From Abditibacterium sp. (GTDB lineage Bacteria > Armatimonadota > Abditibacteriia > Abditibacteriales > Abditibacteriaceae), in assembly GCA_965199495.1 (NCBI GenBank), contig CBDASK010000003.1, positions 1,856,001 through 1,920,000 of the forward strand: a DNA stretch of 64,000 nt. The letters run 5' to 3'. A model generated the notes under the pieces. That model saw only the letters and a program-made list of their open reading frames with translations, was not told the DNA's origin and did not search any database. Each line of letters starts with the position of its first letter. The first letter of the stretch is position 1. The position numbers and the translations under genes are program-made. Positions 614-59,075 of the stretch are shown piece after piece.

Positions 614-1768
614 ATGACACAAAATTTCCGCTCTCAAATCGCCTTGCGCGGTGTTTTCGTCGCCGTGGCTTTAACCAGCACGCTCGCTGTAAACGCGCAC
701 GCTCGTCCGCAATGGACGCCCGCGCAGGCCAACACATGGCACGCCCAAAACGGCAATCAATGGTTGCGCGGCTCCAACTTTTTGCCGTCGAGCGCCATCA
801 ACCAAATCGAGATGTGGCAGGCCAGCACCTTCGACGAACCCACCATTGACCGCGAACTGGGTTATGCGCAGGGTTTGGGCTTTAATTCGATGCGCGTTTT
901 CCTGCACGATTTGCCTTATCAACAAGACCCGCGAGGTTTCTTAAAACGCGTTGACCGCTTTTTAACTATCGCCGACAAACACAAAATTCGCCCGCTTTTC
1001 GTGTTCTTCGATTCGTGCTGGTATCCGATTCCCTACTTGGGTGCGCAGATGGCGCCGCGCCCGTTCACGCACAATTCGGGTTGGGTGCAAAGCCCCGGCG
1101 CCGCCGCGCTGCAAGAACCCGCCGAATATCCGCGTTTGCACAAATACGTTTCGGGCGTCGTCAAACGCTTCGCCAAAGACAACCGCATCGCCGGTTGGGA
1201 CGTGTGGAACGAACCCGATAACTTCGATGGCGGCGCCGTGGCTCGTCCCGGCCTCGACCCGAAAAACAAAGTCGAGTTGGTCAACAAACTGTTGCCGCAA
1301 GTTTTCGCTTGGGCGCGCGAAAGCGACCCGACTCAGCCCCTGACTTCAGGCGTGTGGAAGGGCGACAACTTCGGCGCCGACGCCAATTTGGAAGAGTGCG
1401 CGCGCACCCAATTACAAAATTCGGACGTGATTTCGTTTCACAACTACGGCGATGACGCTTCGATGCGTCGCGCGATTAACTCGCTCAAACGTTTCGGTCG
1501 CCCGCAGATGTGTACCGAATATATGGCGCGTCCCAACGGCAGCACGTTCAATCCGATTCTGGGCACGCTCAAGGCGCAAGACGTGGCTGCTTATAACTGG
1601 GGCTTTGTTTCGGGCAAATCGCAAACGATTTATCCGTGGGATTCGTGGACAAAGACCTATACTTCCGAGCCGCCGGTGTGGTTTCACGACATTCTGCGCA
1701 TGGACGGCACGCCTTATAAACAGGACGAAGTCAATTACATTCGCCAGATTACCGGCGTTACCAAATAA
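614..1768 (+). CDS. Secreted clan GH-A glycoside hydrolase (GH5-like)
   Basis: Signal peptide ending AHA; WDVWNEP acid/base motif and CTEY nucleophile motif. Confidence 0.85.
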   Translation: MTQNFRSQIALRGVFVAVALTSTLAVNAHARPQWTPAQANTWHAQNGNQWLRGSNFLPSSAINQIEMWQASTFDEPTIDRELGYAQGLGFNSMRVFLHDLPYQQDPRGFLKRVDRFLTIADKHKIRPLFVFFDSCWYPIPYLGAQMAPRPFTHNSGWVQSPGAAALQEPAEYPRLHKYVSGVVKRFAKDNRIAGWDVWNEPDNFDGGAVARPGLDPKNKVELVNKLLPQVFAWARESDPTQPLTSGVWKGDNFGADANLEECARTQLQNSDVISFHNYGDDASMRRAINSLKRFGRPQMCTEYMARPNGSTFNPILGTLKAQDVAAYNWGFVSGKSQTIYPWDSWTKTYTSEPPVWFHDILRMDGTPYKQDEVNYIRQITGVTK

Positions 1769-1770
1769 AA

Positions 1771-2355
1771 ATGCTCCCTAAAAAGCCCACGTTTTCTCAA
1801 TTGGTGTGCGGCGCGCCCGACGTGCGCGCCGCGTTTGAGTCGTATGTGCCCGCGCAGTTTTGGTGGCGCCTGATACTGATGTTGCACGGCAAACCCGTGG
1901 CGTCGTCGCTTTCGTGCGCGCAGGAATCGCGGCAAATCGCCGAGGGTTTCCGTTTTTACGCGTGGCTTTACCGATTTTTGGCGGTTGTGTTTCTGTTGTT
2001 GGGGCCGACGTTATTGGCCGCGAACACTAACGAAAACAACGTCAATTATTGGGCGGTGAGCAGCGTGTTATCGGGCATTTATCTGTGGTTTTGTAGCGGA
2101 TTAGGTTTCGCTGGCGCCAGAGATTACGCCATTGAAGCGGCGCACGGCACCATTGTTTTGCTCACATTTATGGTGATGATCGTGGCATTTTTGAGCGCGT
2201 TCGTGGCTGTCATCAGCGTCGTTGCGCAGTCAAATTGGCTGGCAACTGCGCCCAATTTGGCGGCGACGAGCCTGTTGTTTCTCTTCGGTGTCGGTTCTTA
2301 TTTCATCGAAATCGTTTATTTGGCAAGCCGCGCAACGCACGCGACTCGGACATGA
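1771..2355 (+). CDS. Hypothetical membrane protein
   Basis: About four hydrophobic segments; starts 2 nt after the upstream stop and overlaps the next start (ATGA). Confidence 0.6.
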   Translation: MLPKKPTFSQLVCGAPDVRAAFESYVPAQFWWRLILMLHGKPVASSLSCAQESRQIAEGFRFYAWLYRFLAVVFLLLGPTLLAANTNENNVNYWAVSSVLSGIYLWFCSGLGFAGARDYAIEAAHGTIVLLTFMVMIVAFLSAFVAVISVVAQSNWLATAPNLAATSLLFLFGVGSYFIEIVYLASRATHATRT

Positions 2356-3017
2356 AATTTCCTCCCGCACAACAACGAATCCTCGTCGTGGCTGCCCTGC
2401 TCGCCTGGAGCGTTTCTCTCGTGCTTTTTCGGATAGAGGCGAGCAGCGATAAAAACGGATCTGAACTGCTGTGGAATTTATTTCTGGCCGCATTGCCGTT
2501 AGTCTGGAGTTCGATCTTCCAACGCGCCATCACGCGCAAACGCTGGATTGGGGCAAGCGTCACTTTCGTGTTGTGGATTTTATTTCTCCCCAACGCGCCC
2601 TATTTATTAACCGATTTAATTCATCTGGAGCCAAAACCCAACATACCGGAATGGTACATTCTTGCGATGCTGCTCTCGTGTGCAGCCACCGGCACGCTCA
2701 TTGGCTACGTCTCGCTGATGGACGTTCACGCCACCATCGAACGCCGCTTCGGTTTCACCGCGGGCTGGCTGCTCGCGCTGGCTTCGCTCATGTTATGCGG
2801 ATTCGGCATCTATCTGGGCCGCTTTCTGCGCTGGAACAGTTGGGACGCCCTGACGCGCCCGCTCGATTTCGCGCGCACCGTCATCGGCCAATTCGCCGAC
2901 GCGGGGCCGCACCCTCATCCGGTTCCGGTCACGCTGATTTTCGGCGGTGGTTTGGTGATTGGTTATGTGGCGCTTCGCGTATTGACGACGCCCGCGCGGG
3001 CCGAATCGTTGCTGTGA
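2352..3017 (+). CDS. DUF1361-like membrane protein
   Basis: WNLFLA, FLPNAPYLLTDLIHL and GIYLGRFLRWNSWD motifs; start at the ATGA overlap. Confidence 0.85.
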   Translation: MKFPPAQQRILVVAALLAWSVSLVLFRIEASSDKNGSELLWNLFLAALPLVWSSIFQRAITRKRWIGASVTFVLWILFLPNAPYLLTDLIHLEPKPNIPEWYILAMLLSCAATGTLIGYVSLMDVHATIERRFGFTAGWLLALASLMLCGFGIYLGRFLRWNSWDALTRPLDFARTVIGQFADAGPHPHPVPVTLIFGGGLVIGYVALRVLTTPARAESLL

Positions 3018-3031
3018 TAAATTAAAACTCC

Positions 3032-3661
3032 ATGCAAATTCAATCTGAACAACTCGCCTACTGGTATTTTCGGCTGAATGGATTCCTCAACATTCCAAAC
3101 TTTGTTGTTCATCCTGATACCGGCAACGATCAGCGCACCGACGTAGATTTGCTTGGTGTCAGATTTCCGTATAGAGCAGAATTGTTACTCAGCCCTGTGC
3201 CCATGCGTGACGATGATATTTTTCGTCATCCGAGGGACAAAGCGCACCTTATTTTGGCAGAAGTTAAAGTCGGATTGTGTAACTTGAACGGCCCTTGGAC
3301 TAAGCCGGGGAATGAAAATATGCAAAGAGTTTTGCGCGCCGTTGGAATTTTACCATTACAAGAAATCGAATTGGCTGCGGCGGCTCTTTATGAGAAGGGC
3401 GTTTATTCCAATCAGCTTTACAAAGTGTCCCTGTTCTGTCTTGGAGCCAGAAAGAATCCCGAAATCGCGGACAATTACCCGAAGGTAATTCAATTAACAT
3501 GGGAAGATTGCCTGACTTTCATCGACGGGCGATTCAGACAATATCGCGGCAAGAAAGCGGGCCACAATCAATGGGACAAACACGGAAAAGCTTTGTGGAA
3601 TTGCTCCAGAGACAGTTCAACTGTCGAAGAATTTATCGCTCAAGTAGAGGTGATAGGATGA
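3032..3661 (+). CDS. Hypothetical protein, possible PD-(D/E)xK nuclease
   Basis: E...TDVDLLGV...LILAEVK spacing resembles a restriction-endonuclease-like active site. Confidence 0.6.
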   Translation: MQIQSEQLAYWYFRLNGFLNIPNFVVHPDTGNDQRTDVDLLGVRFPYRAELLLSPVPMRDDDIFRHPRDKAHLILAEVKVGLCNLNGPWTKPGNENMQRVLRAVGILPLQEIELAAAALYEKGVYSNQLYKVSLFCLGARKNPEIADNYPKVIQLTWEDCLTFIDGRFRQYRGKKAGHNQWDKHGKALWNCSRDSSTVEEFIAQVEVIG

Positions 3662-4290
3662 ACAACCAAATTGAATGGCGCCGCGCCTTTATTCGTAGTG
3701 GCTTCAACCTAATCGAACTTGATGGCAAATTTGATTTCAATCGGGAGAATCACGGCATTGAATTCTTCTTTCTCTCCATTTTGTCCGAGCTGCAACTCGA
3801 CGCCGAATACAAAAACGGCATCTTCTCGCCAATATCCGCAACCGTTGACGAATCGGCGTGGCTCGCTGCTATCGACAAATTGCACACCGATTCTGAGGGC
3901 GGGCGTTCTGGCATGGACGATATTGATTTGCAAATGATGGACACCTACATGGCTGGCATCGTTCGCTGGGTGAATGCCGCTGGCATCCGAACAAAGCACA
4001 GTTGCGATGGTCATCCGCCTTACGAACGCCGAGGCCCAACTCTGGATTTAGCTAATGTGAGCCAGAGAGTTCCGTTGAACTACTTCCTGCGCCTTGTATC
4101 GGATGGAGACTGGGAATTGATGCGGAATCGCTTTGTGAAAACCGAAGAGCGCCGCCGATCAGCGCGAAACAGTGGGCCGATGTTGACGGGCGACCGATTT
4201 TGGCTGTTGGACGTGGCGGAGAAAATTCACCAACATCAAGACACTTTGCGCCAACTTGTAGAAATCTCAAGCGAGTTGGCCCAGAGCTAA
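3658..4290 (+). CDS. Hypothetical protein with SCDGH motif
   Basis: ATG at 3658 overlaps the upstream stop (ATGA); open frame of 210 aa. Confidence 0.6.
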   Translation: MNNQIEWRRAFIRSGFNLIELDGKFDFNRENHGIEFFFLSILSELQLDAEYKNGIFSPISATVDESAWLAAIDKLHTDSEGGRSGMDDIDLQMMDTYMAGIVRWVNAAGIRTKHSCDGHPPYERRGPTLDLANVSQRVPLNYFLRLVSDGDWELMRNRFVKTEERRRSARNSGPMLTGDRFWLLDVAEKIHQHQDTLRQLVEISSELAQS

Positions 4291-4339
4291 TTTCGATTTG
4301 GGCGCTCAAAAATTTCTCAAGAAATTTCCCAAAAATCCC

Positions 4340-4752
4340 TTGCGGCCTTCCGCGCATCTCCGTATAATTTCTTCTTGCGCCTGACGAAGAGTATCTCGCA
4401 AGGCGCACCGCGAAGTTCAAATCGCTCCACTGAATAGAAAAATTCCTTGAGAAACATTCTAGAAAGTTGGAACCCCGATTTGAGACAAGCATCTGTAAAA
4501 AGCCCGATGAGTGAGGTCGAACTTAGAGCTTCAAGAGAAGCCTAAAATTAAGCCTTGACGAAATCGGCAGAAGAGAGTAAAATTTCTTCTTGCCCCTGAA
4601 GAAGAGAGCTTCGAGATGATTTCAAAAGGCCCTTGACAAGACGGGGAGAAGAGAGTAGAATTTCTTCTTGCGCCGAGCGAAAGCGGGTTGAGTTAGCTTC
4701 TAAAAAAGCCCTTGACAAGCCGAGCAGAGTGCAGTAAAATTTCTTCTTGCCC
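4340..4752 (+). promoter_or_regulatory. Four tandem sigma70-type rRNA promoters
   Basis: TTGCGG-17-TATAAT (4340), TTGACG-17-TAAAAT (4555), TTGACA-17-TAGAAT (4633), TTGACA-17-TAAAAT (4712), each followed by ttcttcttgc. Confidence 0.85.
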
Positions 4753-4797
4753 GTTGCGAAGAGGCCGAATAAAGTAGGCTGAAACGAAGCGATGGCG

Positions 4798-4830
4798 CGT
4801 TCTTTGAAAACTGAATAGTGGAAAGGTAAA
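4798..4830 (+). promoter_or_regulatory. BoxA-like antitermination site and 5' arm of the 16S processing stem
   Basis: cgttctttgaaaactgaatagtg; complementary to cactattcagttttcagag at about 6618-6636. Confidence 0.75.
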
Positions 4831-4972
4831 GCGTGAACGAACAAGCCTCTCATCTTCGGATGAGATATGTAAATGTTGTGCGAGCTTTAGGTCAAGCTTT
4901 GAGCTGTTCAGGGATGAACAGCCAAAAATACCTTGCTGTTGAAATAGCAAAGTGTTCAAACATCCATTCTTT

Positions 4973-6488
<1,516 letters not shown>

Positions 6489-6663
6489 TGGAGCAAACTT
6501 CAAGTAACCTTTCGAGGTGAACGACAGTGTTCTAAAATTTACTCGCCAACATTTGGCGTGTTCGAGAGTCCCAAGATTGAAATATCGGACGGACTCGTGC
6601 TTGACCAGTTTTACCCCCACTATTCAGTTTTCAGAGTGCCTTCATCTTTGGGGCGCAAATTTG

Positions 6664-6697
6664 AAAAAGCCCGTCGCGTAAGCGGCGGGCTTTTTGT
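6664..6697 (+). terminator. Intrinsic terminator closing the 16S-only transcript
   Basis: aaaaagcccgtcgc-gtaa-gcggcgggcttttt. Confidence 0.85.
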
Positions 6698-6751
6698 CGT
6701 TTGTCTCAATTCACGCCCTGATGTGGTATTGGAAGTGCAGCCACGTCCAAA

Positions 6752-7996
6752 ATGCGTCACTTCACTGCAAAATTTCTTGTTCTATTCGTTGCGCTCACTT
6801 CGTCGGCGTGGCTGTGTTATGCCGCTCCTGCTATTAAAACAACGCCTCACACATTTCCATTACAATATGTGGGGTTTTACAAAAATACTCCGATTACTCC
6901 GGTAATCGCCTTAAAATCCGATTTTGTGGCGTATCCCAATTTGCCCTCTTATAAGAAGTTTCTCGACGCTCCCGCAAATTCGCTTGAAAGAACAGTTGCG
7001 CGTTATGTTGAAACACTTTCCGATGGGCGCGATACGCTATCGCCAGAAACGTTGGCTACCGTTGAGAATTTCTACACTGAAGACGAGAAGGAAGGTAATG
7101 AGAAAGCCATCGAAAGTGTTCATAGCCAGTTCAACAAAATCGCGGACATCCGAATGTGGCACCGATATGATGCAGGGCTACTCTCGATTATTTCATTGGC
7201 TTATATTTCGCCCTCGCGCGTTCAACCCTTCAAAACTCTTTATCTGCGTAAAAGCGGCGCCTCTTACTTCATCACGGGACTTCAAAGTGGCTCCAAAAAC
7301 TACAAAGACGGGCAGTCTGTAATCGATGGAATTGCTTTGTCGAGTGTTGTCTCTCTGAACGAAAGCAACTTAGTGTCACGACCCGATTTGGCTAATGTTC
7401 CTCAACCCACCTATCGTTATAATTTTGCTTTACAAAATTCGTTGCCGGAAGATACTTCTCCGGTTAATCATTTGGAAATTCTGTTCACAGGCAAGCCATC
7501 CAACATTCCTGTTGACGAGAACATGATTCCTGCCGATCCGGTGCAAGCGCTAATTAAGCGCGCGGTTCAAGTTAGACGCAAAGGCACGCTGCAAGAATTC
7601 CTCTCTTTATGGACAGACTACGACAAAAACGGCACCTTCGCGCGTAATCTGGCTCTACAAAATAGTCGGAATGCTCCTCACGCTTCGGCTTCCAGCATTG
7701 GTTTCTTCGCCGGTCAGGACGAAGTTCGTATTGTGTTCACCATTGATTTCGAGGTCGGCGCTTTGGTTTTTCTACGAAACAACGATTCCAAGAAGTTGCA
7801 TTTGCTCAAGGTATGGAAACAATCGCCAAACGATTATCGGTTGAGCGAATCAGGTAGCTTAGAAAGAGGCGATGTTCTGCCCGGTAATTTAAATACTCTG
7901 TTCGACTCTTCGGATTTTCAATCTTATGTTAATGGCCAAGTTGACCAATTCATAGAGCAAAATGACACAAAAGCAACTAATTCCATCCGCGACTAA
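6752..7996 (+). CDS. Secreted hypothetical protein
   Basis: 414-aa ORF with an N-terminal signal peptide; more AT-rich codon usage; no family recognised. Confidence 0.7.
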   Translation: MRHFTAKFLVLFVALTSSAWLCYAAPAIKTTPHTFPLQYVGFYKNTPITPVIALKSDFVAYPNLPSYKKFLDAPANSLERTVARYVETLSDGRDTLSPETLATVENFYTEDEKEGNEKAIESVHSQFNKIADIRMWHRYDAGLLSIISLAYISPSRVQPFKTLYLRKSGASYFITGLQSGSKNYKDGQSVIDGIALSSVVSLNESNLVSRPDLANVPQPTYRYNFALQNSLPEDTSPVNHLEILFTGKPSNIPVDENMIPADPVQALIKRAVQVRRKGTLQEFLSLWTDYDKNGTFARNLALQNSRNAPHASASSIGFFAGQDEVRIVFTIDFEVGALVFLRNNDSKKLHLLKVWKQSPNDYRLSESGSLERGDVLPGNLNTLFDSSDFQSYVNGQVDQFIEQNDTKATNSIRD

Positions 7997-8411
7997 TATC
8001 CGTTACTATCCTCAGCCTTCCGAAGCCAGCCACGCCGCCATTGCGCGCGTTGAGAATGGCCAAATTCATCCCGGCTATTATTTAATCGATCCCGCGACTA
8101 AAGCGCGCGTTGTCGCCGATTTGCCGTTGCCTGTCGTGAAATTTATTCATCGGTTCGCTATGTGCTGCTCGCTTGATTGTTGTGGTTGGGCCGCGCTCGC
8201 GTTCGATGAGCCGAGCGCCGACGATGCACGTTGGGCGATTGCATTGCGCGTGGAGGACGAGTTCGCGCGGGCGCGGGACGCAATCGAAAGTTCGGTCGCA
8301 GAATTGTTGTGGTTTCCGCAGTTGGGGTTGGGCGCGACGAAAGAGGTCGCGTTGGTTTTCTTCGGCTGGTTTGAAGCGGGTTTGCGCCGCGTGAAAATGG
8401 ATTTGACCTAA
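7962..8411 (+). CDS. Hypothetical protein with a CCSLDCCG motif
   Basis: 149-aa ORF overlapping the upstream gene end. Confidence 0.5.
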   Translation: MTQKQLIPSATNIRYYPQPSEASHAAIARVENGQIHPGYYLIDPATKARVVADLPLPVVKFIHRFAMCCSLDCCGWAALAFDEPSADDARWAIALRVEDEFARARDAIESSVAELLWFPQLGLGATKEVALVFFGWFEAGLRRVKMDLT

Positions 8412-8421
8412 GATTTCCTCA

Positions 8422-8527
8422 TTCTCCATAAAGATGACGATTTATCGCGTCTAAGAATATCGCTTGCTTCCACTTTATCGGCAAGTCTGACGTTTTAGAC
8501 GCGATAAATCGTCGTCTCTACGGAAAA
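8422..8527. repeat. Degenerate GTAG-AGAC REP doublet
   Basis: gacgatttatcgcgtctaa ... ttagacgcgataaatcgtcgtctctac inverted arms between convergent genes. Confidence 0.8.
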
Positions 8528-8538
8528 CGAAAATTGGC

Positions 8539-9459
8539 TCACTGTTCTAATTTATAATTCGATTCCTCGCCTGACTCACGCGCCGGATGCGCATCAACGC
8601 CATCGAAACTGAGCGTGACCGGCGCAATTGAGCCGTCGGCGCGAAATTCTAAGCGTTCCAGACACGTCACGCGATGGTTGGCGTCGGTTTCGCCCAAAGG
8701 TCGGCGATGATAACAGATCACCCAATCGTCGTCGGTGCCGGGCAATTGCATCACCGAATGATGGCCCGCACTGGTCGCCACGTCGGGGTTGTTCTGCAAA
8801 ATCACGCCGCCGTTTTTAAACGGGCCGAACGGATTATCGGCGCGACCGTAGGCGACGCGATAACTCGCATCGCCCCAACCGCCTTCGCTCCACATCATGT
8901 AATAAACGCCACGGCGTTTGACCATAAACGGGCCTTCGACGTAATCGGGCGAAGGCGTGATTTCGCGTGGCGCGCGGTTAATCGCTTGCATCGTCGGCGT
9001 TAATGGCGCGACGACGCAATGGCCGTGGCCGCCATAATACAAATAGGCGCGACCATCGTCGTCCACGAAACAGTGCGCGTCAATCGGTTGGGCGCCGAAG
9101 AAATAATCGCGCACGAGCGGAATACCGATGGCGTCGCGAAACGGGCCGAACGGATAATCGGAAACCGCGACGCCAATTCCGGCGCCATCGCCCGCCGAAA
9201 AGTAGAAATAATACTTGCCGTCGCGCGGATTGCGCGCGCACGAGGGCGCCCAGGCCGCGAAGTTGGTTGACCAGCGCACGTCGAGCAAGCTCAAAATTAT
9301 TCCGTCGTTGTGCCAGTTGACTAAATCGCCGCTGCTCCAACATTCGTAATGCAATTGCTCGGTGAAAGGCGCCGAGGTCGTCGGATAGACGTAATAACGT
9401 CCATCGAAACAATGGATTTCGGGATCGGCATACCAGCCGGGAAAAATGGGATTGGGCAC
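8539..9459 (-). CDS. Glycoside hydrolase family 43
   Basis: NPIFPGWYADP, WAPS, IDAHCFVDDDG, VEGP and GHHSV motifs. Confidence 0.92.
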   Translation of the reverse strand: MPNPIFPGWYADPEIHCFDGRYYVYPTTSAPFTEQLHYECWSSGDLVNWHNDGIILSLLDVRWSTNFAAWAPSCARNPRDGKYYFYFSAGDGAGIGVAVSDYPFGPFRDAIGIPLVRDYFFGAQPIDAHCFVDDDGRAYLYYGGHGHCVVAPLTPTMQAINRAPREITPSPDYVEGPFMVKRRGVYYMMWSEGGWGDASYRVAYGRADNPFGPFKNGGVILQNNPDVATSAGHHSVMQLPGTDDDWVICYHRRPLGETDANHRVTCLERLEFRADGSIAPVTLSFDGVDAHPARESGEESNYKLEQ

Positions 9460-9506
9460 GCGTTAAAGGATACAGAATCACCCGCGTTCAAACATCAGAC
9501 ACAAAG

Positions 9507-9643
9507 GATCAGTGCCGTTTGTAGAGACACCGACCGTGTGCCCTTTGGGCGGATGTCTAAAACGTAGAAGTAGCGACGATTTTTACGTTTTAGACATCCG
9601 CCCAAAGGGCACACGGTCGGTGTCTCTACAAACGGCACTGATC
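9507..9643. repeat. GTAG-AGAC REP doublet, perfect 60-bp inverted arms
   Basis: Arms 9507-9566 and 9584-9643 are exact reverse complements around a 17-nt loop. Confidence 0.92.
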
Positions 9644-9647
9644 GTTG

Positions 9648-11958: not shown

Positions 11959-12011
11959 CAGGGCAACTCGCGCGTCGAAAAAAGGTCACAGAAAAGCGTA
12001 GATTTATTTCG

Positions 12012-49621: not shown

Positions 49622-49832
49622 GCGGGATGAGAATAAAAAGGCAGTGTTGCAATGTTTTGGTCGTTCGCACCAGAGCGCGCGGCTCCAAACGCGACAAGAA
49701 CCGGCGTTTCACGGCGAATATTGGGAGTTTTTGTGTCCCTCAGGCTTTTGAGTCAGACTTTCTAACCCTGTCAAGTTTTTGATTTACTTTCACGACCATG
49801 TTCTATTTTCCAGTTGCCGCGAGGCTTTTCCG

Positions 49833-50417
49833 ATGAACCGCGATGCCTTTATTAATCGGGCGCTGCGGTTGCCCGGTTCGATGCGGATGCGCGCGCGCAT
49901 TCGGATGTGGCGCGCGATGGGCGCGCGCATTGGCCCCGGTTGCTGGATTCGCGATGTGCAAGTGCCCGCCAATCCGTGGAATATCGAACTGGCCGAAGGC
50001 GTGATGCTGGAGCAAGATGTCGCGCTCATCACTCTCGAAACGCGCCGTGCGCGACCGGCTATTTCGTTGGGCCAAGCCGTTTTCATCAACCGGTTTACCG
50101 TTCTCGACGCTGCCGAACACATCGAAATCGGCGCTTATACCATGATTGGGCCGCTCTGTTTTTTGACCGATCACGATCATGGCACCGAACCGGGCACGTT
50201 GAGCCGCGATCAAGAGCCGGTTGTCGCGCCGCTCATCATCGGCTCGAACGTTTGGATCGGCGCGGGCGCGCTGATTCTCAAAGGCGTCACCATCGGCGAC
50301 AACGCGGTTATTGGCGCGGGCGCCGTCGTCACCCGCGATGTGGCGCCCGGCGCGCGCGTTGTCGGCGTGCCCGCGCGCGCTCTGGCGGCGCGCGATGTCG
50401 CCCCCGAAACTCGCTGA
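49833..50417 (+). CDS. Hexapeptide-repeat acyltransferase
   Basis: TDHDH, IIGSNVWIGAGALILKGVTIGDNAVIGAGAVV, GVPAR. Confidence 0.9.
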   Translation: MNRDAFINRALRLPGSMRMRARIRMWRAMGARIGPGCWIRDVQVPANPWNIELAEGVMLEQDVALITLETRRARPAISLGQAVFINRFTVLDAAEHIEIGAYTMIGPLCFLTDHDHGTEPGTLSRDQEPVVAPLIIGSNVWIGAGALILKGVTIGDNAVIGAGAVVTRDVAPGARVVGVPARALAARDVAPETR

Positions 50418-50419
50418 AT

Positions 50420-51553
50420 TTAGGCCGCCGAACGCGCGCACCGCACCAAGCCTTCGCCGAATTTTGACGCGGGCCAGCGCGCGATAATCTCGCGTGAAGC
50501 CGCGCCCAATTGCGCGCGCTCATCGTCCGAAATTTCGTGCGCCAAATGATTCATGCGCGCGCTTAATTCGCTGGCGTTTGTGGGGTCGAAGCTCCAGCCG
50601 TTGCGTCCGTCTTCCAAAAGTTCGGGCGCGCAACCGCAGGTCTGCGACAGCAAAATCGGCAGACCGCACGCCATCGCCTCGTTGACGACCAAACCCCACT
50701 GCTCCTGCAAACTGGCGTGAACGAACGCGCCCGCATGGGCCATCCAGCGCGCGACTTCGTCTTCTTGCACGAAGCCGGTGAAATGAACGCCGTCCAACCC
50801 CAACTTCTCGACCTGCGCGCGCAAATTCGCTTCTTGCTCGCCCGCGCCGCACAAAACCAAATCCCACGGCGTCTGAGCCGCGAACTGTCGGGCGGCGTGG
50901 CTGCGGTAAGTCGCCCAAGCCTCGACGACGCGCGCCAAATTTTTGCGCTCGATAAATCGGTTGACCGTCAGAAAATAAGGCCGTTCGATTAATCGCGGTT
51001 CGCCGCGCCATTTTTGCGCGCGCGTGGCGAAACCTGCGTTGTCCACCACATCGTAGCCCTCGAAAATGCGCCCGGCGGGAATGCCCAACTGCACCAAGTA
51101 ACGTTTATGCGCCGCGCCGCCGACCAATCCGGCGTCGAAACGGCTGACGATGCGTTTTTTGATTGCTTCTTTCAACGCTTTGCGCGGCGCGTCGTCGCGT
51201 TTGCTTTCCGACATCAAAACCGCGATTTTGTCGTTGCGATTGGCCCAGCGAAGCGCCGCGCGCATTTCGGCGCGCTCGTATCCGCAAATCGCCACAACGT
51301 CGGGTTGCGCTTTACTTAAATACGCTTCCAATTTGCTTTTTATCTCTTTGGCCGGAATCTCTTCGAGCGTGCCATCGAGCAGCGTTTCGAGTTGCAAACC
51401 CAAATTTTCGCGATCCGTCTGCCACGGATAAAGCGCTTCCTGCGCCGCGATTTCCAAACCGACGCACGACGAAAACTCGCGTTGAGAGGCCGCGCCGCGC
51501 AGACGCGCCAGATGATAAGGGCCGAAATTGGGGAAGAGAATCAGAAGTTTCAT
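50420..51553 (-). CDS. Glycosyltransferase family 4
   Basis: GPYHLAR, RFIERKN, EQWGLVVNEAMACG. Confidence 0.9.
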   Translation of the reverse strand: MKLLILFPNFGPYHLARLRGAASQREFSSCVGLEIAAQEALYPWQTDRENLGLQLETLLDGTLEEIPAKEIKSKLEAYLSKAQPDVVAICGYERAEMRAALRWANRNDKIAVLMSESKRDDAPRKALKEAIKKRIVSRFDAGLVGGAAHKRYLVQLGIPAGRIFEGYDVVDNAGFATRAQKWRGEPRLIERPYFLTVNRFIERKNLARVVEAWATYRSHAARQFAAQTPWDLVLCGAGEQEANLRAQVEKLGLDGVHFTGFVQEDEVARWMAHAGAFVHASLQEQWGLVVNEAMACGLPILLSQTCGCAPELLEDGRNGWSFDPTNASELSARMNHLAHEISDDERAQLGAASREIIARWPASKFGEGLVRCARSAA

Positions 51554-51751
51554 GCGCGAAAGTCCTCATAGTATAAAGTCGCCTTTCGCGCGCGCGGATT
51601 GTGACGGAACGGAGCTTTGGGCAAAGCAGAATCTGTTTTGATAAAATTGTGGCATCCACTCGTAAATACCCAAAAAGTCTTGGACGCGAAAGCAACGTTA
51701 AGGCCAATTAATTGTCCTTAGCAAACAAAGCGAACACTATTCGCCTTTTTT

Positions 51752-52738
51752 ATGCGACATTATTGCACCTATTTTGATAAAAACTATTTACTGCGCGGTC
51801 TGACGCTTTTTCGCTCGCTGCAACAACACGAAAAGGAATTTGTGCTGTGGGTTTTGTGCTGCGACGAGGTTTCGTTCACCACATTACAAACGTTGAACGT
51901 GGAGAATCTGCGGCCCATTCGCCTGAGCGAAGTCGAGGAGTTTGAACCGCGCCTGGCGCCGCTCAAAACCCAGCGCAGTCGCGTCGAATATCTGTGGACG
52001 CTGTCGCCGATTTGGCCTTTATTTCTGTTCGAGCGCGACCCGCAAATCGAACTTTTAACCTATCTCGACGCCGACCTGTTTTTTTATGCGTCGCCGCAAC
52101 CGATCTTTGACGAGATGGGCGACAATTCCATCGCGATGTTTTCGCACCGCTTTCCCACGCACCACAAACAGCAGATGGAAGTCAACGGCATTTATAACGT
52201 CGGCTGGCTGTCGTTTCGGCGCGACGAAAACGCCTTCGCCTGTTTGCACGAGTGGCGCGAGCAATGCCTGGATTGGTGCTATGACCGCTGCGAAGACGGC
52301 AAATACGGCGACCAGACTTATCTTGACAATTGGCCGCGCGACCATCAAGGCGTTCGCGTTTTGGAACACGAAGGCGCGGGCATCGCACCGTGGAATTGGA
52401 CGCTTTACCAATTCAAGCGGCGCGGTCAACAACTTTTTTGCAACAACGAACCGTTAATTTTCTTTCACTTTCATGGTTTGCGATTTCTCAATTCGTGGCT
52501 CTACGACGCGTTTTTTTCCAGCTACTTGCATGGCGAAATGTCGCCGCAATTGCACGGTTGGATTTTTGGCCCCTATTTGCGCACGATGTCGCAGACCGCC
52601 AGTTGGGCGCGCGCCAAAGGTGGCCGCATCCAATGGGGACACATGGGCTTTAAAGGTTATATGCGCGCCTATGGCAAACGCATTTTGTTTTACAAACTCA
52701 GCAAACGTTCGTTCTCGCTTTGGCCGGGCATGAAGTAG
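51752..52738 (+). CDS. GT-A fold glycosyltransferase
   Basis: YCTYFDKNYL, YLDADL (DxD), YNVG, GDQTYLD, FFHFHG. Confidence 0.82.
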   Translation: MRHYCTYFDKNYLLRGLTLFRSLQQHEKEFVLWVLCCDEVSFTTLQTLNVENLRPIRLSEVEEFEPRLAPLKTQRSRVEYLWTLSPIWPLFLFERDPQIELLTYLDADLFFYASPQPIFDEMGDNSIAMFSHRFPTHHKQQMEVNGIYNVGWLSFRRDENAFACLHEWREQCLDWCYDRCEDGKYGDQTYLDNWPRDHQGVRVLEHEGAGIAPWNWTLYQFKRRGQQLFCNNEPLIFFHFHGLRFLNSWLYDAFFSSYLHGEMSPQLHGWIFGPYLRTMSQTASWARAKGGRIQWGHMGFKGYMRAYGKRILFYKLSKRSFSLWPGMK

Positions 52739-52893
52739 ATCGTCCACTCTTCGTCCAATGCGAAACCGCGCGGCGCGAAGGTTGATTTGGGTTATCTGCC
52801 GATTTCCAAATCCATGAAAAATTATGGCGTGCGCGCTTCGCTCAAAAAGCTGGCGCGCCGCCAAATGGCCATTCATTGCGGATTAAAGTGAAT

Positions 52894-54420
52894 TTACCGG
52901 CGCAAATTCGAGCGCCGAATCGGCAGCGGCCCGCGTTGCTGAATCGCGGGCCGCGCCAAAGGCGGGCGCGTGGCTGCTCTTGTCGCGGTTATTTGTGTGG
53001 GCTGCGTTTCAACTATCGCCGGTTCGTAACGCGTCGGCGCGTCGGGGTCGCGCGAAAGCCAGACGAACGCCATGAAGGGGACGAAGACCGTCGGCAACCA
53101 GAAAAAGACCGACCACGCTAACGGGTGAATCATCTCCATGCCGCCCAGACCTGCCGAAGCGACCAAGAGAATAACACCCGTGACATAGTGCAATTGGCGC
53201 TGCAAAAACTCCCATAACAGACGAAAGCAAAAGCCGCTGAATATTCCGCCCAAAACCAAACCGATCCAACCGCCGATGTAGAAATATTTGCCGACCATCG
53301 TCGGCGAGGGGCCGCCCAAAAATCCCTGCAAATTTTCTGCGTTGCTAATTTTAGAGACGCGATGAAATCTGTCCCATTCCTCGGCTTCGGGATAAATTTT
53401 GTTCGCCCAAAGCCCGCGCGGAATGCCGTGCGTGAACACTTCGAGCAGCATGTAACCGTAATCGTAATTAACGCGCTGCGGCACGTAATAAGCCACCGAA
53501 ATCGCCATGCCAAAGTCGCTCCACAAATCGGGGCCTTGCTCCGGTTTGTAGGCCGAGGGCGCTTGAGAACCGAAATCGGGATCGCTGAAAAAGCCGAATG
53601 ACCGGTCAACAACAACTGCGGGTTTATCTTTGAGATTGAAACTCATGTCGCGAAAATCGCCGCGATAGGTCGGGATAAAACCAAAAATAAAGAAGATCGT
53701 CGGCAGCAGAAGCGCGACTGTCCACGCGGGCGGGTTGCGGCGCAGGGCCGCGAAAATCGAACCGAACAGAATCACCAACATCATGATGGTGCCTTCGCGC
53801 GTGCCGGTATAAGCCTGCCACAACAAATTCGTCAGCGCCAGCGCGACAACGCAAAATTTGTAGATGTAGGCTTCGCGCTGCGAAAACGCGTGGCACAGCA
53901 ACACCATCAGTCCGAGAGTCGCGATGCGCGGCATGGTATAGACATAGGCCGATAACTCGAAGTTAGTGTTCTCGCGCGGCGCGGAAATATAGTAAGCGAA
54001 ACCGCCCGATGCGTCCATCACCAGATAATAGCCCAACAGGCCGATGCCCAAAAGTAATAATCCCGTCCAGAAGATTTTGGGTTGCGAAGGCGCGGGAAAA
54101 TCGGGAATAAAGCGACTGGCGCGAGCAGCCACCGGCAAACCATAGCCAACCGCGAAGGCGATGCCCACCACCACGAACATCAAAAGCGTTTGCAGATAAA
54201 CCGATTGGCCGTAAAAAGGAATCCACTTGTCGTCGGACAACATCGGTTGCGCCACGCCCGCATAAACGAAGGTCAGCCAAAACGCGTTGACCGGATTGAG
54301 AAAGTGCCAACTACCCGCCAATCGCCATTCGCGCGCGAGAGCTACCACGGGAATGGATGCGATGGCGAAAAGAAGGAGGGCTTCCATTGTTTTTGGGTGA
54401 GCAGGGAACAACGCCCGCAA
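52894..54420 (-). CDS. Wzy-like polysaccharide polymerase (polytopic membrane protein)
   Basis: About 11-12 TM segments with a large periplasmic loop; directly downstream of the Wzc-like gene; start uncertain. Confidence 0.65.
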   Translation of the reverse strand: MRALFPAHPKTMEALLLFAIASIPVVALAREWRLAGSWHFLNPVNAFWLTFVYAGVAQPMLSDDKWIPFYGQSVYLQTLLMFVVVGIAFAVGYGLPVAARASRFIPDFPAPSQPKIFWTGLLLLGIGLLGYYLVMDASGGFAYYISAPRENTNFELSAYVYTMPRIATLGLMVLLCHAFSQREAYIYKFCVVALALTNLLWQAYTGTREGTIMMLVILFGSIFAALRRNPPAWTVALLLPTIFFIFGFIPTYRGDFRDMSFNLKDKPAVVVDRSFGFFSDPDFGSQAPSAYKPEQGPDLWSDFGMAISVAYYVPQRVNYDYGYMLLEVFTHGIPRGLWANKIYPEAEEWDRFHRVSKISNAENLQGFLGGPSPTMVGKYFYIGGWIGLVLGGIFSGFCFRLLWEFLQRQLHYVTGVILLVASAGLGGMEMIHPLAWSVFFWLPTVFVPFMAFVWLSRDPDAPTRYEPAIVETQPTQITATRAATRPPLARPAIQQRGPLPIRRSNLRR

Positions 54421-54432
54421 TTTCCTATTGCT

Positions 54433-56838
54433 CTATCGCACGCCGCCGCGCTCGTCCAACGGTTGCTCTGGATCGAACGGGCGCGTAATTTCGTCGCCCA
54501 CTTTGACCGGAACATAACTCTGTTGAGGCACAATCGCGCGCTCGCCCGGCCCGCGCAAATTGGCGGTCGAATGATGTGAGCGATATTCGCTATACGATGC
54601 GTGCGCGCCCAACTTCGGCGCGACTTTGGTCAGCACGATGCCCAGCACGCGCGCGCCCGTCTGGTGCAGCATATTGGTCGCGCGCGCGATTTCGGGTTTG
54701 GTCGCCTCGCCGCACGCCACGACCAAAAGCGTCGCGTCGGTCATCGTCGCCAGTACGGTCGAATCGGCGATAATTAGCGTCGGCGGGCTGTCAACAATGG
54801 TCAAATCGGCGAGCGCCGACAATTCGTCAATCAACTGTTGCGCTTCGGTTGACTTCAAAAGTTCGAGCGGGCTTTCGTGCGGCGAACCCGCCGTCAAAAC
54901 GCTGAGGCCGGGAATGCGCGTGGCTTGCACGGCTTGCTCTAATGGGGCGTGTCCCAAAACCACATCACTAAATCCGATTTCGTTGCTCAAGCCGAAATAA
55001 TCGTGCAGCGATGGTTTGCGGCCATCGCAGTCAATCAGCACGACTTCTTCGCCCGCCCACGCCGCCGCCGCCGCCAGATTGACGCAGCTCAGCGATTTGC
55101 CTTCGCCGGGCAGGGCGCTCGTCACCAAAACCGAACGCAACGGCACTTCGCGCGCGGCCAGAGCCAGTTGCGCGGTCAGCATCTCGAAACTTTCGCGCAA
55201 AAACGGCGCGTTGCCGGTCAACACCGATTGGTCGGCGCGCCGGTTGATGCGCGGCACGTTAATCAAAATCGGCAACTGCGCCGCCGCGCGCGCCTGAGTG
55301 GCATTGTGGATTTTATCGTCGAAGCGATCCACCAACAGCGCGGCCAGATAAGCCAACAGCGAACCTAACGCCAGCGCCATCAAAAGTGTCGTGGTGCGCC
55401 CGCGTCCCGATGGCGCGCCCGGCGGCGTAGCTGGTGAGGTGATGCTACCGTTGGCGAGTTGCGAGGCCGCGCTCAATTGCAGCGTTTGCGCTTTTTGGCT
55501 CAGGGTATCGTAGGTCGCTTGCAGTCCCGCCAGCGTGTTGGTGAGCTGGGTAATGCGCGAAGTTTTGGCGGGCAACTGCGCTTGCGCGGTTTGGGCGCGT
55601 TGCAGATTCGTTTCTAAAATCGGGATGCGCGCGCGCAACGCTTGCAGATCGGAGCGCGCCGTCGCCAAGTTTTGCGCCGCCGTGATGTAAGCCGGGTTGG
55701 GCGAGCGCTGGGCGGGCGTGGTTTCGTTGGCGGGTTCGCGGTCGAGTTGCGCTTGCACGCGCCCGATCTGGCCGTCAATTTGGCGCACGATGGTGCTGTC
55801 TTCGGTATATTCGGCGCGCGCGGCGATGCGGTCGAGGCGCAGTTTGGTCAGTTCGGCGCGCAGCGAAACCACCGCCGGGCGCGTGACGGTCGTGTAGCTG
55901 ACGATTTCGCGCGGCGTGTTGGCTAACACGTCCTGCTGCACTTTCAAACTCGCGGCGGCGGCGGCTTGCGCGGCGCGCGCCTGGGTCAAATCGCTTTTGG
56001 TGGTTTCAAGCGTCGTCGCCACGTTTTGCGCTTGTTGCACGCCGTCGGTGATGCCGACTTTGGCTTGATAATTTTTCAGTTCGTCGCGCGCGTTACCCAG
56101 GTTTTCGCGCACGGTTTGCAGTTGCCCGCGCGCCGAATCGGCGGCGGCCTGAATCGCGCGGCGGTTGTTCTTCTGGCTCTGCTCGATATACGAATCGCAA
56201 ATCGCGTTCGCCAGCGCCGCGCTCGCGGGCGCCGAGGGCGAGCCGACGGTGACTGTCACCAAATCGGTGTTGCGAATCGAGCCGATATTCAAATTGTAAG
56301 ACCGCTCGATGGCGGCTTTATCGTCGGGATTGAGGCTGTTTTTGGCGGCCTCGACAACGCTATCGGTTTTGACGATTTCGAGTTGCGTTTCCAAACGGCG
56401 CGCCTCGTCCACGCCGGGCACATCGGTCGGCGGCGCGTCGGGCGAGGCGTTGGGGTCGTCGGGCCGTTTTTCGCCCGCGAGCGGCGAAGTGTTGACGAGT
56501 AATGTCGCCGTGGCTTGATAGGTGCGTTGCGAACGCAACGAATAAAGTAAACCCAGCAAGAGCGCGCCGAGCAGAATTGGCAACACCAAATAGCGGCGGC
56601 GCCACAGCAAATCGAAGAGGCGACGCAACGGATCGGAGCGCGTCGCGGCGCCTTCAGTTTCGCCATCGAGTCGGGCCGGTTCAGGCGCGCCATCATCGTG
56701 ATAAGGCGCGAGTGCCGTTTCCTTGGGGCGCGACAGAACGCGCGCGCCCTGCGTGGTGGCATCGGACGTGCCGCTCCCGTTTTCGGGAGCGGGCGAACGA
56801 TGCTCGATGTAAGAATCGAAGAATTTTTTCTCTCTCAA
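54433..56838 (-). CDS. Wzc/GumC-like polysaccharide co-polymerase with tyrosine kinase domain
   Basis: Two TM helices flanking coiled coils; SALPGEGKS Walker A, LIDCD, IVDSPP. Confidence 0.9.
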   Translation of the reverse strand: MREKKFFDSYIEHRSPAPENGSGTSDATTQGARVLSRPKETALAPYHDDGAPEPARLDGETEGAATRSDPLRRLFDLLWRRRYLVLPILLGALLLGLLYSLRSQRTYQATATLLVNTSPLAGEKRPDDPNASPDAPPTDVPGVDEARRLETQLEIVKTDSVVEAAKNSLNPDDKAAIERSYNLNIGSIRNTDLVTVTVGSPSAPASAALANAICDSYIEQSQKNNRRAIQAAADSARGQLQTVRENLGNARDELKNYQAKVGITDGVQQAQNVATTLETTKSDLTQARAAQAAAAASLKVQQDVLANTPREIVSYTTVTRPAVVSLRAELTKLRLDRIAARAEYTEDSTIVRQIDGQIGRVQAQLDREPANETTPAQRSPNPAYITAAQNLATARSDLQALRARIPILETNLQRAQTAQAQLPAKTSRITQLTNTLAGLQATYDTLSQKAQTLQLSAASQLANGSITSPATPPGAPSGRGRTTTLLMALALGSLLAYLAALLVDRFDDKIHNATQARAAAQLPILINVPRINRRADQSVLTGNAPFLRESFEMLTAQLALAAREVPLRSVLVTSALPGEGKSLSCVNLAAAAAWAGEEVVLIDCDGRKPSLHDYFGLSNEIGFSDVVLGHAPLEQAVQATRIPGLSVLTAGSPHESPLELLKSTEAQQLIDELSALADLTIVDSPPTLIIADSTVLATMTDATLLVVACGEATKPEIARATNMLHQTGARVLGIVLTKVAPKLGAHASYSEYRSHHSTANLRGPGERAIVPQQSYVPVKVGDEITRPFDPEQPLDERGGVR

Positions 56839-56965
56839 CGTGAAGCTCCGTGGTTGCTTTTAACCTAAAAAATCCGCTTTAGTTTGAACGAAATCACTGT
56901 CAAGCGTCGCGCAGCGCGTCAAGAGTTGGTAAAAGAGCGAATTTCGAGCGACATTTCTGGCCGCA

Positions 56966-57000
56966 AAAGCGGCGTGGCTCTTGGAGCCACGCCGCCACTT
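56966..57000 (-). terminator. Hairpin built from an inverted CGTGGCT pair
   Basis: aaaagcggcgtggctc-ttg-gagccacgccgc; the A-run gives a T-tail on minus after the gene ending at 57021. Confidence 0.75.
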
Positions 57001-57020
57001 TAAATTCTGCGTGTCCTAAA

Positions 57021-58103
57021 TCAACTTTCCGTTTCCGCCGTTTGCGCCAAGACTTCGCCGCCCAACTCGTTGTTTTGCGCTGCCGCTTTGTCCACTGCCG
57101 CCGTCAATTTGCTGGTCGCGACCTGCGCTTCCAAAGCCGCGCCCGCCAACGTTTTATTGCCCGCATCGCCCGGCGTCGGGCCGGGCAAAAAGCGCGTGAC
57201 AAACCCCAACAACTCGCCCGCGACGTTGGGAAACATCCGGTATAAAACGCTGCCCCACAATATAGGCAACGGAAAGGCCAATTGCGGATCGCCGTAACGC
57301 GCCGCGTCCACGATGAGGCGCGCCGCGCTAACCGCGTTGGTCGAACCGCCCGGCATCACGGCGGCGGTTTTGAACATCTTATATTCCTTGGCCTGTTGCC
57401 CCTTGAATTTGGCCGCGACGTGCGAGCCGGTGCGAATCGGGCCGGGACAAACCGTCGTCACTTTGATTTTATCTTTCGCCAACTCGTTACGCATCGCGTC
57501 CGATAACCCGACCATGCCGAACTTGGAGACCGCGTAGGGCGCCATGTGCGGCATCGCGATAAGTCCGCCGCTCGAAGCGATATTGACGATGCGGCCCTGC
57601 CCCGATTTTTTCAAGTGTGGCAACGCCGCGCGCGTCAGGCGGAGCGGCCCCCAAATATGCAAATCAATCGCGGCTTTAAAATCCGAATCTAGCATATGTT
57701 CGAGCGGCCCGACCTGAATAATGCCCGCGTTGTTAATCAAAACGTCAACACCGCCAAAGCGCTCGATGACGCGGTTGATAGCAGCCACGTCGTCGTGCGG
57801 GTCGGTGACATCGGCGATAACGGTGAGAACTTGCGCGCCCATCGCTTCGAGTTGGGTTTGCGCGGTTACAAGTTCGTCTTCGTCGCGCGCCAGCAAAGCT
57901 AACTTGGCGCCCAACTTGGCAAATTCGCGCGCGATACAAAGTCCCAACCCGCGCGAGCCGCCGCTAATCACGACGACGCGCCCGTTAAAGTCCACGGCTT
58001 TTCGGTTGCGTAATAAGCGTAAGCCGACCATCGCGCCGCCGAAGAGAAACGCCAATTTAGAAGTCAAAGAAATGCCGCGCCTGGCGGTTTGGAGTGCGTC
58101 CAT
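57021..58103 (-). CDS. Short-chain dehydrogenase/reductase
   Basis: SGGSRGLG, LINNAG, YAVSK. Confidence 0.92.
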   Translation of the reverse strand: MDALQTARRGISLTSKLAFLFGGAMVGLRLLRNRKAVDFNGRVVVISGGSRGLGLCIAREFAKLGAKLALLARDEDELVTAQTQLEAMGAQVLTVIADVTDPHDDVAAINRVIERFGGVDVLINNAGIIQVGPLEHMLDSDFKAAIDLHIWGPLRLTRAALPHLKKSGQGRIVNIASSGGLIAMPHMAPYAVSKFGMVGLSDAMRNELAKDKIKVTTVCPGPIRTGSHVAAKFKGQQAKEYKMFKTAAVMPGGSTNAVSAARLIVDAARYGDPQLAFPLPILWGSVLYRMFPNVAGELLGFVTRFLPGPTPGDAGNKTLAGAALEAQVATSKLTAAVDKAAAQNNELGGEVLAQTAETES

Positions 58104-58186
58104 AAGTGAACGCGCGATGTTGCCAATCGCGCGCCCAAGGCCGTAACAACGTAGATTTCGCGCCCGTTTGAGGTCATCTTACTGCT

Positions 58187-58723
58187 ATGAAATTATTTGG
58201 CGAAAACAGCCGGTTCGCGAGCTTGAGCTACAACGCGATGGCAGTCGTGGGCGTAGTTTTAACGCTCACTCAGTGGGCGTTGTGGATGCTGATTTTGCCG
58301 ATTATCGCGGCGGATTGGGGGCAGAGCTTGAACGTCGTCACGTTCCCACACGCCCCCGGAGAATTCGACGTGGCTCCGTTTATCTGCGTGATGTTATGCG
58401 CGATTGTCGGCCTGTTGATGGGCGCCGGAACGCACAATGTCCGCGAACTACTGCGCCGTGGCCACAGGCGCGAAGCCCGCACGCGCTGTTTTTCTGCGGG
58501 CTTGAGTTGGATCGTCAGTAGCGGATTTTTATTTCACGTCGCGACGCACAATTTACCCAGCGCCCGCAATTCTGGCGCTCTGCTCAATATCGAGTTGCAC
58601 TTCGGCGCCCTGTTGCTGACGCTATTGTCGCCCGCGTTGGCGTTGTTGCTCACCTCGCTCCTTTTGTCGCGACAAGATGCGCGCACGGCCCCGGTAATTG
58701 CGCCGCGCAAAGACCCTTTTTGA
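58187..58723 (+). CDS. Hypothetical membrane protein
   Basis: Four hydrophobic segments. Confidence 0.6.
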   Translation: MKLFGENSRFASLSYNAMAVVGVVLTLTQWALWMLILPIIAADWGQSLNVVTFPHAPGEFDVAPFICVMLCAIVGLLMGAGTHNVRELLRRGHRREARTRCFSAGLSWIVSSGFLFHVATHNLPSARNSGALLNIELHFGALLLTLLSPALALLLTSLLLSRQDARTAPVIAPRKDPF

Positions 58724-59075
58724 GGCGCAGATGGCACGACCGATGTGCTGTTGCCCTGCAAGCGATGGATCGAATCGAGCGAATAGATCGAATGGATACG
58801 GTTGCCCGACTGGCCTATCGAGCAACCGTTGACGGCTTGGGTCATTGGCGCGTCGAACCAATCGGCCACGAAAACCGCGTTGGCGGCATTGCGCAGATGA
58901 CGCGCACCAATCCAGAGTCGCCGACTTCGGGTATCGGCCCAAAATGTAGGTCGGAGTTTGCTTGCGCTGATTATCAGCGAGCAAAATTGTGCCGAGTAAA
59001 AGTGCGCCAACCGCGCCGAAAAATGCGAATCGTTTCAGAGCAGCCACGGGCAAGCGGAGCGTTAGTTTCGTGATG

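Follow-up and report, generated by a model that had tools for sequence, protein, structure and literature searches.

A DNA word spaced separately on each strand of an Abditibacterium chromosome: a possible self tag for natural transformation

The seven-letter word CGTGGCT is scattered about once per kilobase over both strands of an Abditibacterium chromosome, and its copies keep their distance from one another on the same strand while opposite-strand pairs stay near expectation. The word came to attention in a stretch of 64,000 nucleotides (the window; positions 1,856,001 to 1,920,000 of contig CBDASK010000003.1, assembly GCA_965199495.1), for which an initial annotation made from the letters alone had offered a DNA-uptake, Chi-like or methylation-linked signal. 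In our numbering the window is C3:1856001-1920000, C3 being the 4.72-Mb chromosome of the source genome (G000), whose contigs C1 and C2 were judged by eye, from their proteins, to be plasmid-like and phage-like. We propose that this genome-wide, clade-specific word may mark DNA as self during natural transformation, being recognised on the strand that bears it or on that strand's behalf, and may spread by the same process, and we would put the probability of this reading at roughly 45%.

The word is real and is selected or driven, and codon use is no explanation for it. Exact search of the window gives 57 copies, 38 as CGTGGCT and 19 as AGCCACG, with all the positions cited among them (at least 57 had been counted by eye), and 100 dinucleotide shuffles gave a mean of 8.61 copies (standard deviation 2.85, maximum 15); the expectation given at the time was about 10. 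The remark that more than half of the copies continue with G also stands (35 of 57). Chromosome-wide there are 4,533 copies, and the proposed genome-wide comparison with Markov models places CGTGGCT at the top of the outlier lists at k=6-9. The 2:1 strand skew reported earlier is a property of the window and not of the chromosome (2,277 plus and 2,256 minus), and a skew this strong occurs in only one of 73 non-overlapping 64-kb windows.

Gene calls made for this analysis (3,989 genes on C3, 86% coding) place 4,216 copies in coding sequence, where four codon- or peptide-preserving shuffles, run three times each, yield 745, 757, 642 and 713, an excess of 5.6- to 6.6-fold. The initial annotation had allowed that such a null might abolish the enrichment, with Val-Ala codon pairs in a single frame as the cause, and 1,835 of the coding copies (44%) do lie in the x-Val-Ala frame. 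However, all six frames exceed their nulls (observed/null 1,835/165 for xVA, 1,250/170 for xAT, then 408/132, 138/17, 419/139 and 166/122), and the word is also in excess between genes (315 vs 68, or 4.6-fold, and 14-fold for the 8-mer). The alanine codon GCT rises from 10% overall to 47% following GTG, and 10 of 13 genomes of the genus lack the word. For the 11-mer CGNCGTGGCTG, 2,025 copies in genes face 47 under the codon null (43-fold). A codon or dipeptide artefact is refuted by these nulls for both word lengths, and we give it practically no credence.

The extended word reads CG-V-C-GTGGCT-G-C-W, with a strict core and graded flanks. Among the 18 single changes in GTGGCT, 17 drop to 0.3-1.8 of the null and one to 3.6 (17 copies), and substitution in the outer flanks (three positions) leaves 1.1 to 15 times the null. 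Proteins bear the imprint of the word. Compared with three word-less samples of the genus (156,000 residues), the peptides that it encodes score 1.50 vs 0.95 (AAT), 1.67 vs 0.93 (SH[AGVD]), 3.28 vs 0.79 (AATA) and 2.65 vs 1.17 ([AGD]VAA). Peptide alteration is likewise described for the uptake signal sequences (USS) of Pasteurellaceae and the DNA uptake sequences (DUS) of Neisseriaceae (PMC2817400).

The word is confined to one small clade, and relatives use others. Our family set comprises 27 genomes, 13 from the genus and 14 from elsewhere in the family, of which ten bear a word (three and seven, respectively). CGTGGCTG is 8- to 11-fold above its reversed control only in the source genome and in two relatives, G004 and G011 (three of 13 in the genus and none of 48 others), and these three form one RpoB clade in a quick tree of 26 rows. 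Six other family genomes (G014, G018, G020, G022, G024 and G026) carry palindromes built on AGTACT, with 2,813-4,733 copies of this core each, or about one per kb; examples are TCGAGTACTCGA in G020 and TGCAAGTACTTGCA in G014. A seventh, G017, has AGTACGGTCGA, mostly as a 23-bp palindrome (loci of these seven genomes: L109-L121, L165-L169 and L180-L183). Several word-less relatives are nearly free of AGTACT (1-21 copies), and samples of the remaining 17 family genomes, six of them just 10-16 kb long, yielded no word of similar prominence. Coding copies exceed codon nulls in G004, G011, G014, G017, G020 and G022. Two records both named 'Abditibacterium sp.', with MurC 68% and 64% identical, differ in that the 7-mer occurs 16 times in 21 kb of one and is absent from the other; this comparison covered 15 of 64 parts of the genome collection, and the next match had 40% identity. 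In G004 the word is built into a hairpin headed by GTAG and resembling repetitive extragenic palindromic (REP) elements, GTAGGACGTGGCTGGTGTC... (for example in L081 near 3026), often as inverted doublets. The GTAG repeats of the source genome, GTAGAGACACCGAC (118 copies) and GTAGAGACGCCGAT (81), lack the word.

Same-strand pairs of the 7-mer occur at 0.17-0.54 of expectation at 7-500 bp, 0.65 at 500-700 bp, 0.86 at 700-1,000 bp and 1.05 at 1.5-2 kb, and the ratio for the 11-mer is 0.04-0.30. Opposite-strand pairs lie at 0.76-1.16 of expectation beyond 20 bp, with an excess only at 8-16 bp. Among 337 frequent 7-mers, whose median same-strand ratio is 1.24, CGTGGCT has the lowest (0.41). Strong copies, those forming the 11-mer, exclude farther than weak ones (0.10/0.34/0.63 vs 0.70/0.67/0.99), symmetrically up to 700 bp, and the sole directional asymmetry concerns strong-weak pairs at 700-1,200 bp (203 vs 252). 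Even across oppositely directed neighbour genes, pairs on the same DNA strand are depleted (28 vs 55; control 307 vs 290 at 2.5-3.3 kb). Because the spacing holds by DNA strand across opposed genes, a cause at the level of RNA or transcription is rejected.

It could be argued that the word, although favoured throughout, doubles as a hot spot of recombination, such that close direct copies delete and are purged. Two copies on one strand form a direct repeat, and an extent of about 1 kb is reminiscent of deletion whose rate depends on distance. However, exclusion is alike for identical (0.23) and non-identical (0.26) 11-mers, which leaves slippage between identical repeats unsupported, other frequent 7-mers are not depleted, and the positive pressure on the word would be left unexplained. 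We regard this account as highly improbable.

The same exclusion is repeated in G011, where solo copies of the 8-mer in 430 kb give observed/expected counts of 3/8, 6/17 and 17/28 on the same strand and 10/9, 20/18 and 33/30 on opposite strands. In a 233-kb alignment of the source genome with G011, 175 of 255 sites are conserved, compared with fractions of 0.36-0.57 for five control 7-mers, and the turnover of the remainder is compensated per strand. Copies present only in G011 lie near same-strand copies present only in the source genome (7 within 300 bp vs 2.9±1.6) and keep away from same-strand copies that both genomes have (10 within 1 kb vs 20.2±3.6), with the opposite strand close to the null. 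A toy simulation with a gain that saturates per strand returns ratios of 0.11/0.29/0.69/0.98 for an observed 0.13/0.23/0.57/0.83, and a strand-blind version depletes both pair classes. What the data call for is a benefit that levels off within about 1 kb and accrues to each strand on its own.

This last result bears on the possibility of a classical DUS or USS, in which a pilus-tip receptor binds the duplex word regardless of its orientation. Presence on both strands, dialects, some terminator-like pairs, scarcity in foreign DNA and altered peptides all agree with such a system. A 1,300-aa protein of a pilin cluster is also suggestive, being an adjacent pair in the source genome, G004 and G011, with 88% identity between the source protein and that of G011 and 60% with that of G004, whose word flanks differ. 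However, an orientation-blind model depletes both pair classes, while opposite-strand pairs are at expectation. Nor does a sample of known DUS obey a comparable rule: of 55 long metagenome loci with DUS, the 40 retained after overlap removal (698 kb, 390 solo of 777 copies) give observed/expected counts of 11/16, 35/34 and 50/56 on the same strand and 23/16, 32/34 and 60/55 on opposite strands. The USS control, 39 of 68 viral loci of prophage DNA (630 kb) with only 192 solo copies, gives 12/15 and 13/13 at 60-500 bp. The 1,300-aa protein, which has no Pfam or PDB match, is rejected as a reader since it occurs in 25 of 27 family genomes and is doubled in several word-less ones. All considered, we find a classical uptake sequence improbable. 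The two paralogues of the source genome (C3:872853-880963) are 52% identical and stand at the end of a minor-pilin cluster.

The Chi-like option was addressed through replichore skew. The GC skew of C3 is weak; GGGNAGGG, which we take to be the FtsK-orienting polar sequence (KOPS), flips strand sharply near 2.1 Mb and 4.3 Mb, defining the replichores. On the two arms the word has 1,104/1,059 and 1,173/1,197 plus/minus copies and KOPS has 136/33 and 51/160, such that 50.8% of word copies and 78% of KOPS are co-oriented with the replichores. Queries with E. coli RecC and RecD, with MutH and with the AddB of G002 found no match in the source genome, and RecB and AddA queries match only a single UvrD-type helicase. 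Given that the word lacks replichore skew and that RecB, RecC, RecD, AddA and AddB were not found, a classical Chi site is excluded.

A Chi-like end-processing signal might still serve a machine other than RecBCD or AddAB, with an oriented copy stopping resection or loading RecA. Each end of a two-ended break needs an oriented copy, so that both orientations would be tiled independently and without replichore skew, and the same per-strand spacing is predicted. A G002 AddA query finds its target in all 10 word-less genomes of the genus and in none of the three word-bearing ones (G004 is 92% complete and G011 87%), nor in any of the 14 other family genomes, including the seven with AGTAC-based words; AddB-type frames follow this pattern with G015 added and G003 removed. 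The presence of recJ and two recQ homologues, and an AddAB-independent Chi-like role suggested for the highly iterated palindrome HIP1 (10.1101/2024.09.10.611283), also speak for the idea. However, the AddA pattern in the genus is a single loss event and therefore a lead rather than a statistic, and seven family genomes without AddA show no word in their samples. No candidate machine follows the words: NurA is found in one of five genomes tested and is absent from the source genome, and the 5 of 27 genomes that have a 1,421-aa nuclease-helicase comprise word-less G016 and none of the six AGTACT genomes. The palindromes of 10-16 bp in relatives are also unlike known Chi sites. We judge such a signal unlikely.

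The word is scarce on resident mobile DNA, as the island comparison suggested by the initial annotation reveals. The chromosome has 0.46 copies of the 11-mer per kb, compared with none in the 24.7 kb of C1, one in the 64.6 kb of C2 and 0.10 per kb on the comM island. That word-poor region (C3:1120676-1255883) holds three 3' fragments of comM beside an intact comM, with elements integrated at this gene. Several of the 25 largest gaps between words are low in GC, the tail of the window among them. On the chromosome, inverted pairs with a spacing of 7-19 bp exceed expectation 2.8- and 3.5-fold and lie mostly within genes. The scarcity on mobile DNA, the existence of dialects, the altered peptides and the terminator-like and REP-like arrangements are all uptake-like, and no end-processing machine tested tracks the words; for these reasons we favour transformation over break repair. 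A CRISPR-like array of 131 repeats (C3:2766484-2775007) was also seen, and the spacers hold one 7-mer in 8.6 kb, which is a very small sample. Separately, TTCGAA, CGGCCG, CTCGAG, CCGCGG, GCCGGC, GGACC, CTAG and GTAC are strongly avoided in the source genome (0.01-0.11 of expectation), an avoidance mostly common to the family samples.

A methylation-linked word of the HIP1 type would have an orphan methyltransferase mark one strand, either at the A of AGCCAC or at a C, and thereby guide mismatch repair or a methylation-dependent uptake. The 6-bp core is all-or-none, the AGTACT words of relatives are palindromic, mutS and mutL are present, and Elhai's repair model predicts a density near one per kb (PMC4390886). 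However, divergence at four-fold sites within genes is flat with distance from the word in comparisons with G011 (30,794 sites) and G004 (26,072), a test whose sensitivity is limited by the divergence of 0.27-0.30. The mutH gene was not found in the source genome, and if Elhai's ratchet acted through a mark on one strand we would expect copies on opposite strands to exclude each other, contrary to what is seen. None of 14 methyltransferase-type proteins of the source genome is close in both G004 and G011 when compared with 23 loci of four relatives, and an N6/N4 cluster common to all three genomes is also found in six word-less genomes of the genus. The D12, Eco57I-type, C5 and N6/N4 methyltransferases among the loci fetched do not track the words and are rejected as readers. 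A mismatch-repair signal is disfavoured, and a methylation-linked word seems to us quite unlikely. An N6/N4 methyltransferase with a small partner gene lies directly behind mutS (C3:2187698-2189498), as it also does in G011. Of the three options first offered, the uptake-like traits are borne out (both strands, scarcity in foreign DNA, some terminator stems, dialects and competence genes), classical Chi is not, and a methylation link finds no shared methyltransferase among those compared.

The source genome is equipped for natural transformation insofar as homologues of pilB, pilC, three pilT, pilQ, comEA, comEC, dprA and comM are present, in answer to the call for competence genes made with the first description. 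None of the methyltransferases, NurA, the nuclease-helicase and the competence genes that were tested tracks the words. The metallo-beta-lactamase motifs of ComEC (C3:3065496-3068075, L038) are short of histidines in the source genome, G004, G011, G009 and G003 and are intact in the remaining full-length family copies aligned. As a trait of the reader this degenerate nuclease motif is rejected, given that G009 and G003 are word-less.

How might a self tag in transformation produce such a pattern? Kin DNA would be taken up through the pilus, ComEA and ComEC, with one strand entering the cell, and entry of only one strand in transformation is described in PMC7811141. A candidate sequence-specific protein acting at or after entry could help a word-bearing strand to be imported, to survive or to be loaded with RecA. 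Events on top and bottom strands would then sum independently, and a new copy would gain only if its own strand had none within the length of a fragment. Biased recombination would spread copies to codon positions that tolerate them, until they tile each strand. Inverted pairs, like the palindromes of relatives, would serve both strands at one spot.

Several observations weigh against this reading. We see no 5'/3' asymmetry in divergence or composition around the sites. Same-strand exclusion is not seen among the copies that lie outside the REP-like element in 400 kb of G004, and the 63 of 220 source sites conserved there are not above controls, although the shifted flank preference of G004 may explain both. 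The same-strand rule is not seen in the 698-kb DUS sample, nor in the underpowered USS sample, so that a tag read per strand is an extension beyond known systems. The toy model was hand-tuned, and any per-strand saturating benefit fits, a break-repair signal included. Unlike DUS and USS, the 7-mer has a higher density in coding sequence, 1.0 per kb, than in intergenic DNA, 0.48 per kb. With comEC in 27 of 27 family genomes and comEA in 25 of 27, word-bearing and word-less alike, competence genes are no predictor of the word.

A broader proposal is more doubtful, namely that the family has a third kind of self-signal, a swappable word (GTGGCT-, AGTACT- or GTACGG-based) that is read strand-wise and takes over the self recognition of recombining DNA where AddAB/RecBCD have been lost. 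Sequence-specific uptake tags are established in two families, and the function of HIP1 has been an open matter for 30 years. No description of CGTGGCTG as a whole word, of transformation in Abditibacteriota or of over-represented words in Armatimonadota was found in a search that covered few subscription papers, and the Abditibacterium genome papers among the listings returned, a part of all, included none on motifs. Under the broader proposal, the asymmetric word lays bare a strand rule that is masked in palindromes such as HIP1. Its asymmetry permits strand-wise tests of uptake and recombination that are impossible with palindromes. The family constitutes a natural experiment: sister species have or lack a word, at least three different words occur, some asymmetric and some palindromic, and within one genus there is an all-or-none match between the word and the absence of AddA. 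A reader of changing specificity would be a protein new among those that handle DNA in a sequence-specific way, and efficient transformation of these bacteria may depend on the word.

Features of the window are collected in the table. The hairpin at 56969-56995, described earlier as an inverted pair, is perfect, sits behind a short-chain dehydrogenase/reductase gene ending at 57021 and is inferred to be terminator-like. The near pair at 25937-25963 differs by one base in its second arm, as its description implied. The close same-strand pair belongs to a class that is rare on the chromosome (8 pairs at 7-19 bp vs 28 expected). The copy in the 16S ribosomal RNA (rRNA) gene is probably incidental, ordinary rRNA sequence in a stretch that we take to be conserved. 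This gene is the sole 16S match in the genome, and Rfam shows no 23S, 5S or tRNA beside it within the window. The FtsA encoded at 28362-30314 (650 aa) has a long C-terminal extension, its FtsA domains stopping near residue 372-383. The tail, correctly reported as empty from 59050 onward, is likely the edge of an integrated element; GC falls there, and it contains a C-terminal fragment of ThiC (61117-61506) and a C5 cytosine methyltransferase (61525-62721). With a 340-aa open reading frame that follows these two and has no Pfam match, the segment 61117-63743 looks like a restriction-modification island.

Table. Copies of the word and related features in the 64,000-nucleotide window
Feature	Position	Strand	Basis or remark
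Dispersed 7-mer CGTGGCT, 57 copies	664..59048	38 +, 19 −	About 0.9 per kb vs 0.96 per kb on the chromosome
13 strong copies (11-mer CGNCGTGGCTG)	2384..50903	+	Word search; starts 2384, 6804, 10248, 11613, 15635, 19193, 22849, 28812, 29073, 34888, 43291, 48536, 50893
7 strong copies (11-mer)	8027..57792	−	Word search; lowest plus-strand coordinates 8027, 10340, 20640, 35604, 38460, 43869, 57782
Inverted word pair, perfect hairpin	56969..56995	.	TTTT after it on the − strand
Intergenic hairpin, exact copy at 25942-25948, second copy with one base changed	25937..25963	.	Sequence
Close same-strand pair, 14 bp apart, within priA	33997..34017	+	Word search and gene calls
Copy within the 16S rRNA gene (4971-6487)	5448..5454	−	Word search and Rfam
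Word-free tail	59049..64000	.	Part of an 8.4-kb gap, C3:1915041-1923431

Comparison with known systems places the word near DUS (eight dialects in Neisseriaceae, PMC3630211) and the USS of Pasteurellaceae (PMC2817400, PMC7811141). Like these, it has thousands of non-palindromic copies in equal numbers on both strands, about one per kb, with a core plus flanks, preferred frames, altered peptides, scarcity in foreign DNA, some terminator-like pairs, family dialects and competence genes. Unlike them, it is unrelated in sequence and lineage and is denser within genes; the strong same-strand-only exclusion and the inclusion of perfect palindromes among the family dialects set it apart from DUS. The word is DUS/USS-like in many of its traits and is a candidate member of that class.

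HIP1 (GCGATCGC) and the alternate HIPs offer a second likeness (PMC4390886, PMC5861425, 10.1101/2024.09.10.611283, PMC13756078). They too are hyper-abundant in genes at about one per kb, are conserved between species, are replaced by other words in some lineages and are tied to transformation, and the AGTACT palindromes of the family are HIP-like in look. In contrast to HIP1, the word of the source genome, G004 and G011 is non-palindromic, with palindromy confined to the AGTACT words of six relatives, and no matching methyltransferase was found among the loci compared. Picocyanobacteria without HIP1 (PMC4390886) mostly have recBCD (PMC5101192), a loose parallel to the AddAB pattern that is imperfect in that PCC 7002 has both addAB and HIP1.

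Chi sites (GCTGGTGG, AGCGG; PMC5101192) are likewise oriented, non-palindromic, strand-read and tied to recombination. Unlike Chi, the word has no replichore skew, RecBCD and AddAB were not found, and in the genus it occurs where AddA was not found. In G004 the word makes up the stem of a GTAG-headed hairpin repeat found between genes, which links it to REP elements. This repeat presumably belongs to the GTAG-type REP family. The word differs from such elements in that 4,216 of 4,553 copies in the source genome (93%) stand singly within coding sequence. In abundance and evolution, the word works like DUS/USS and HIP1 and is not Chi.

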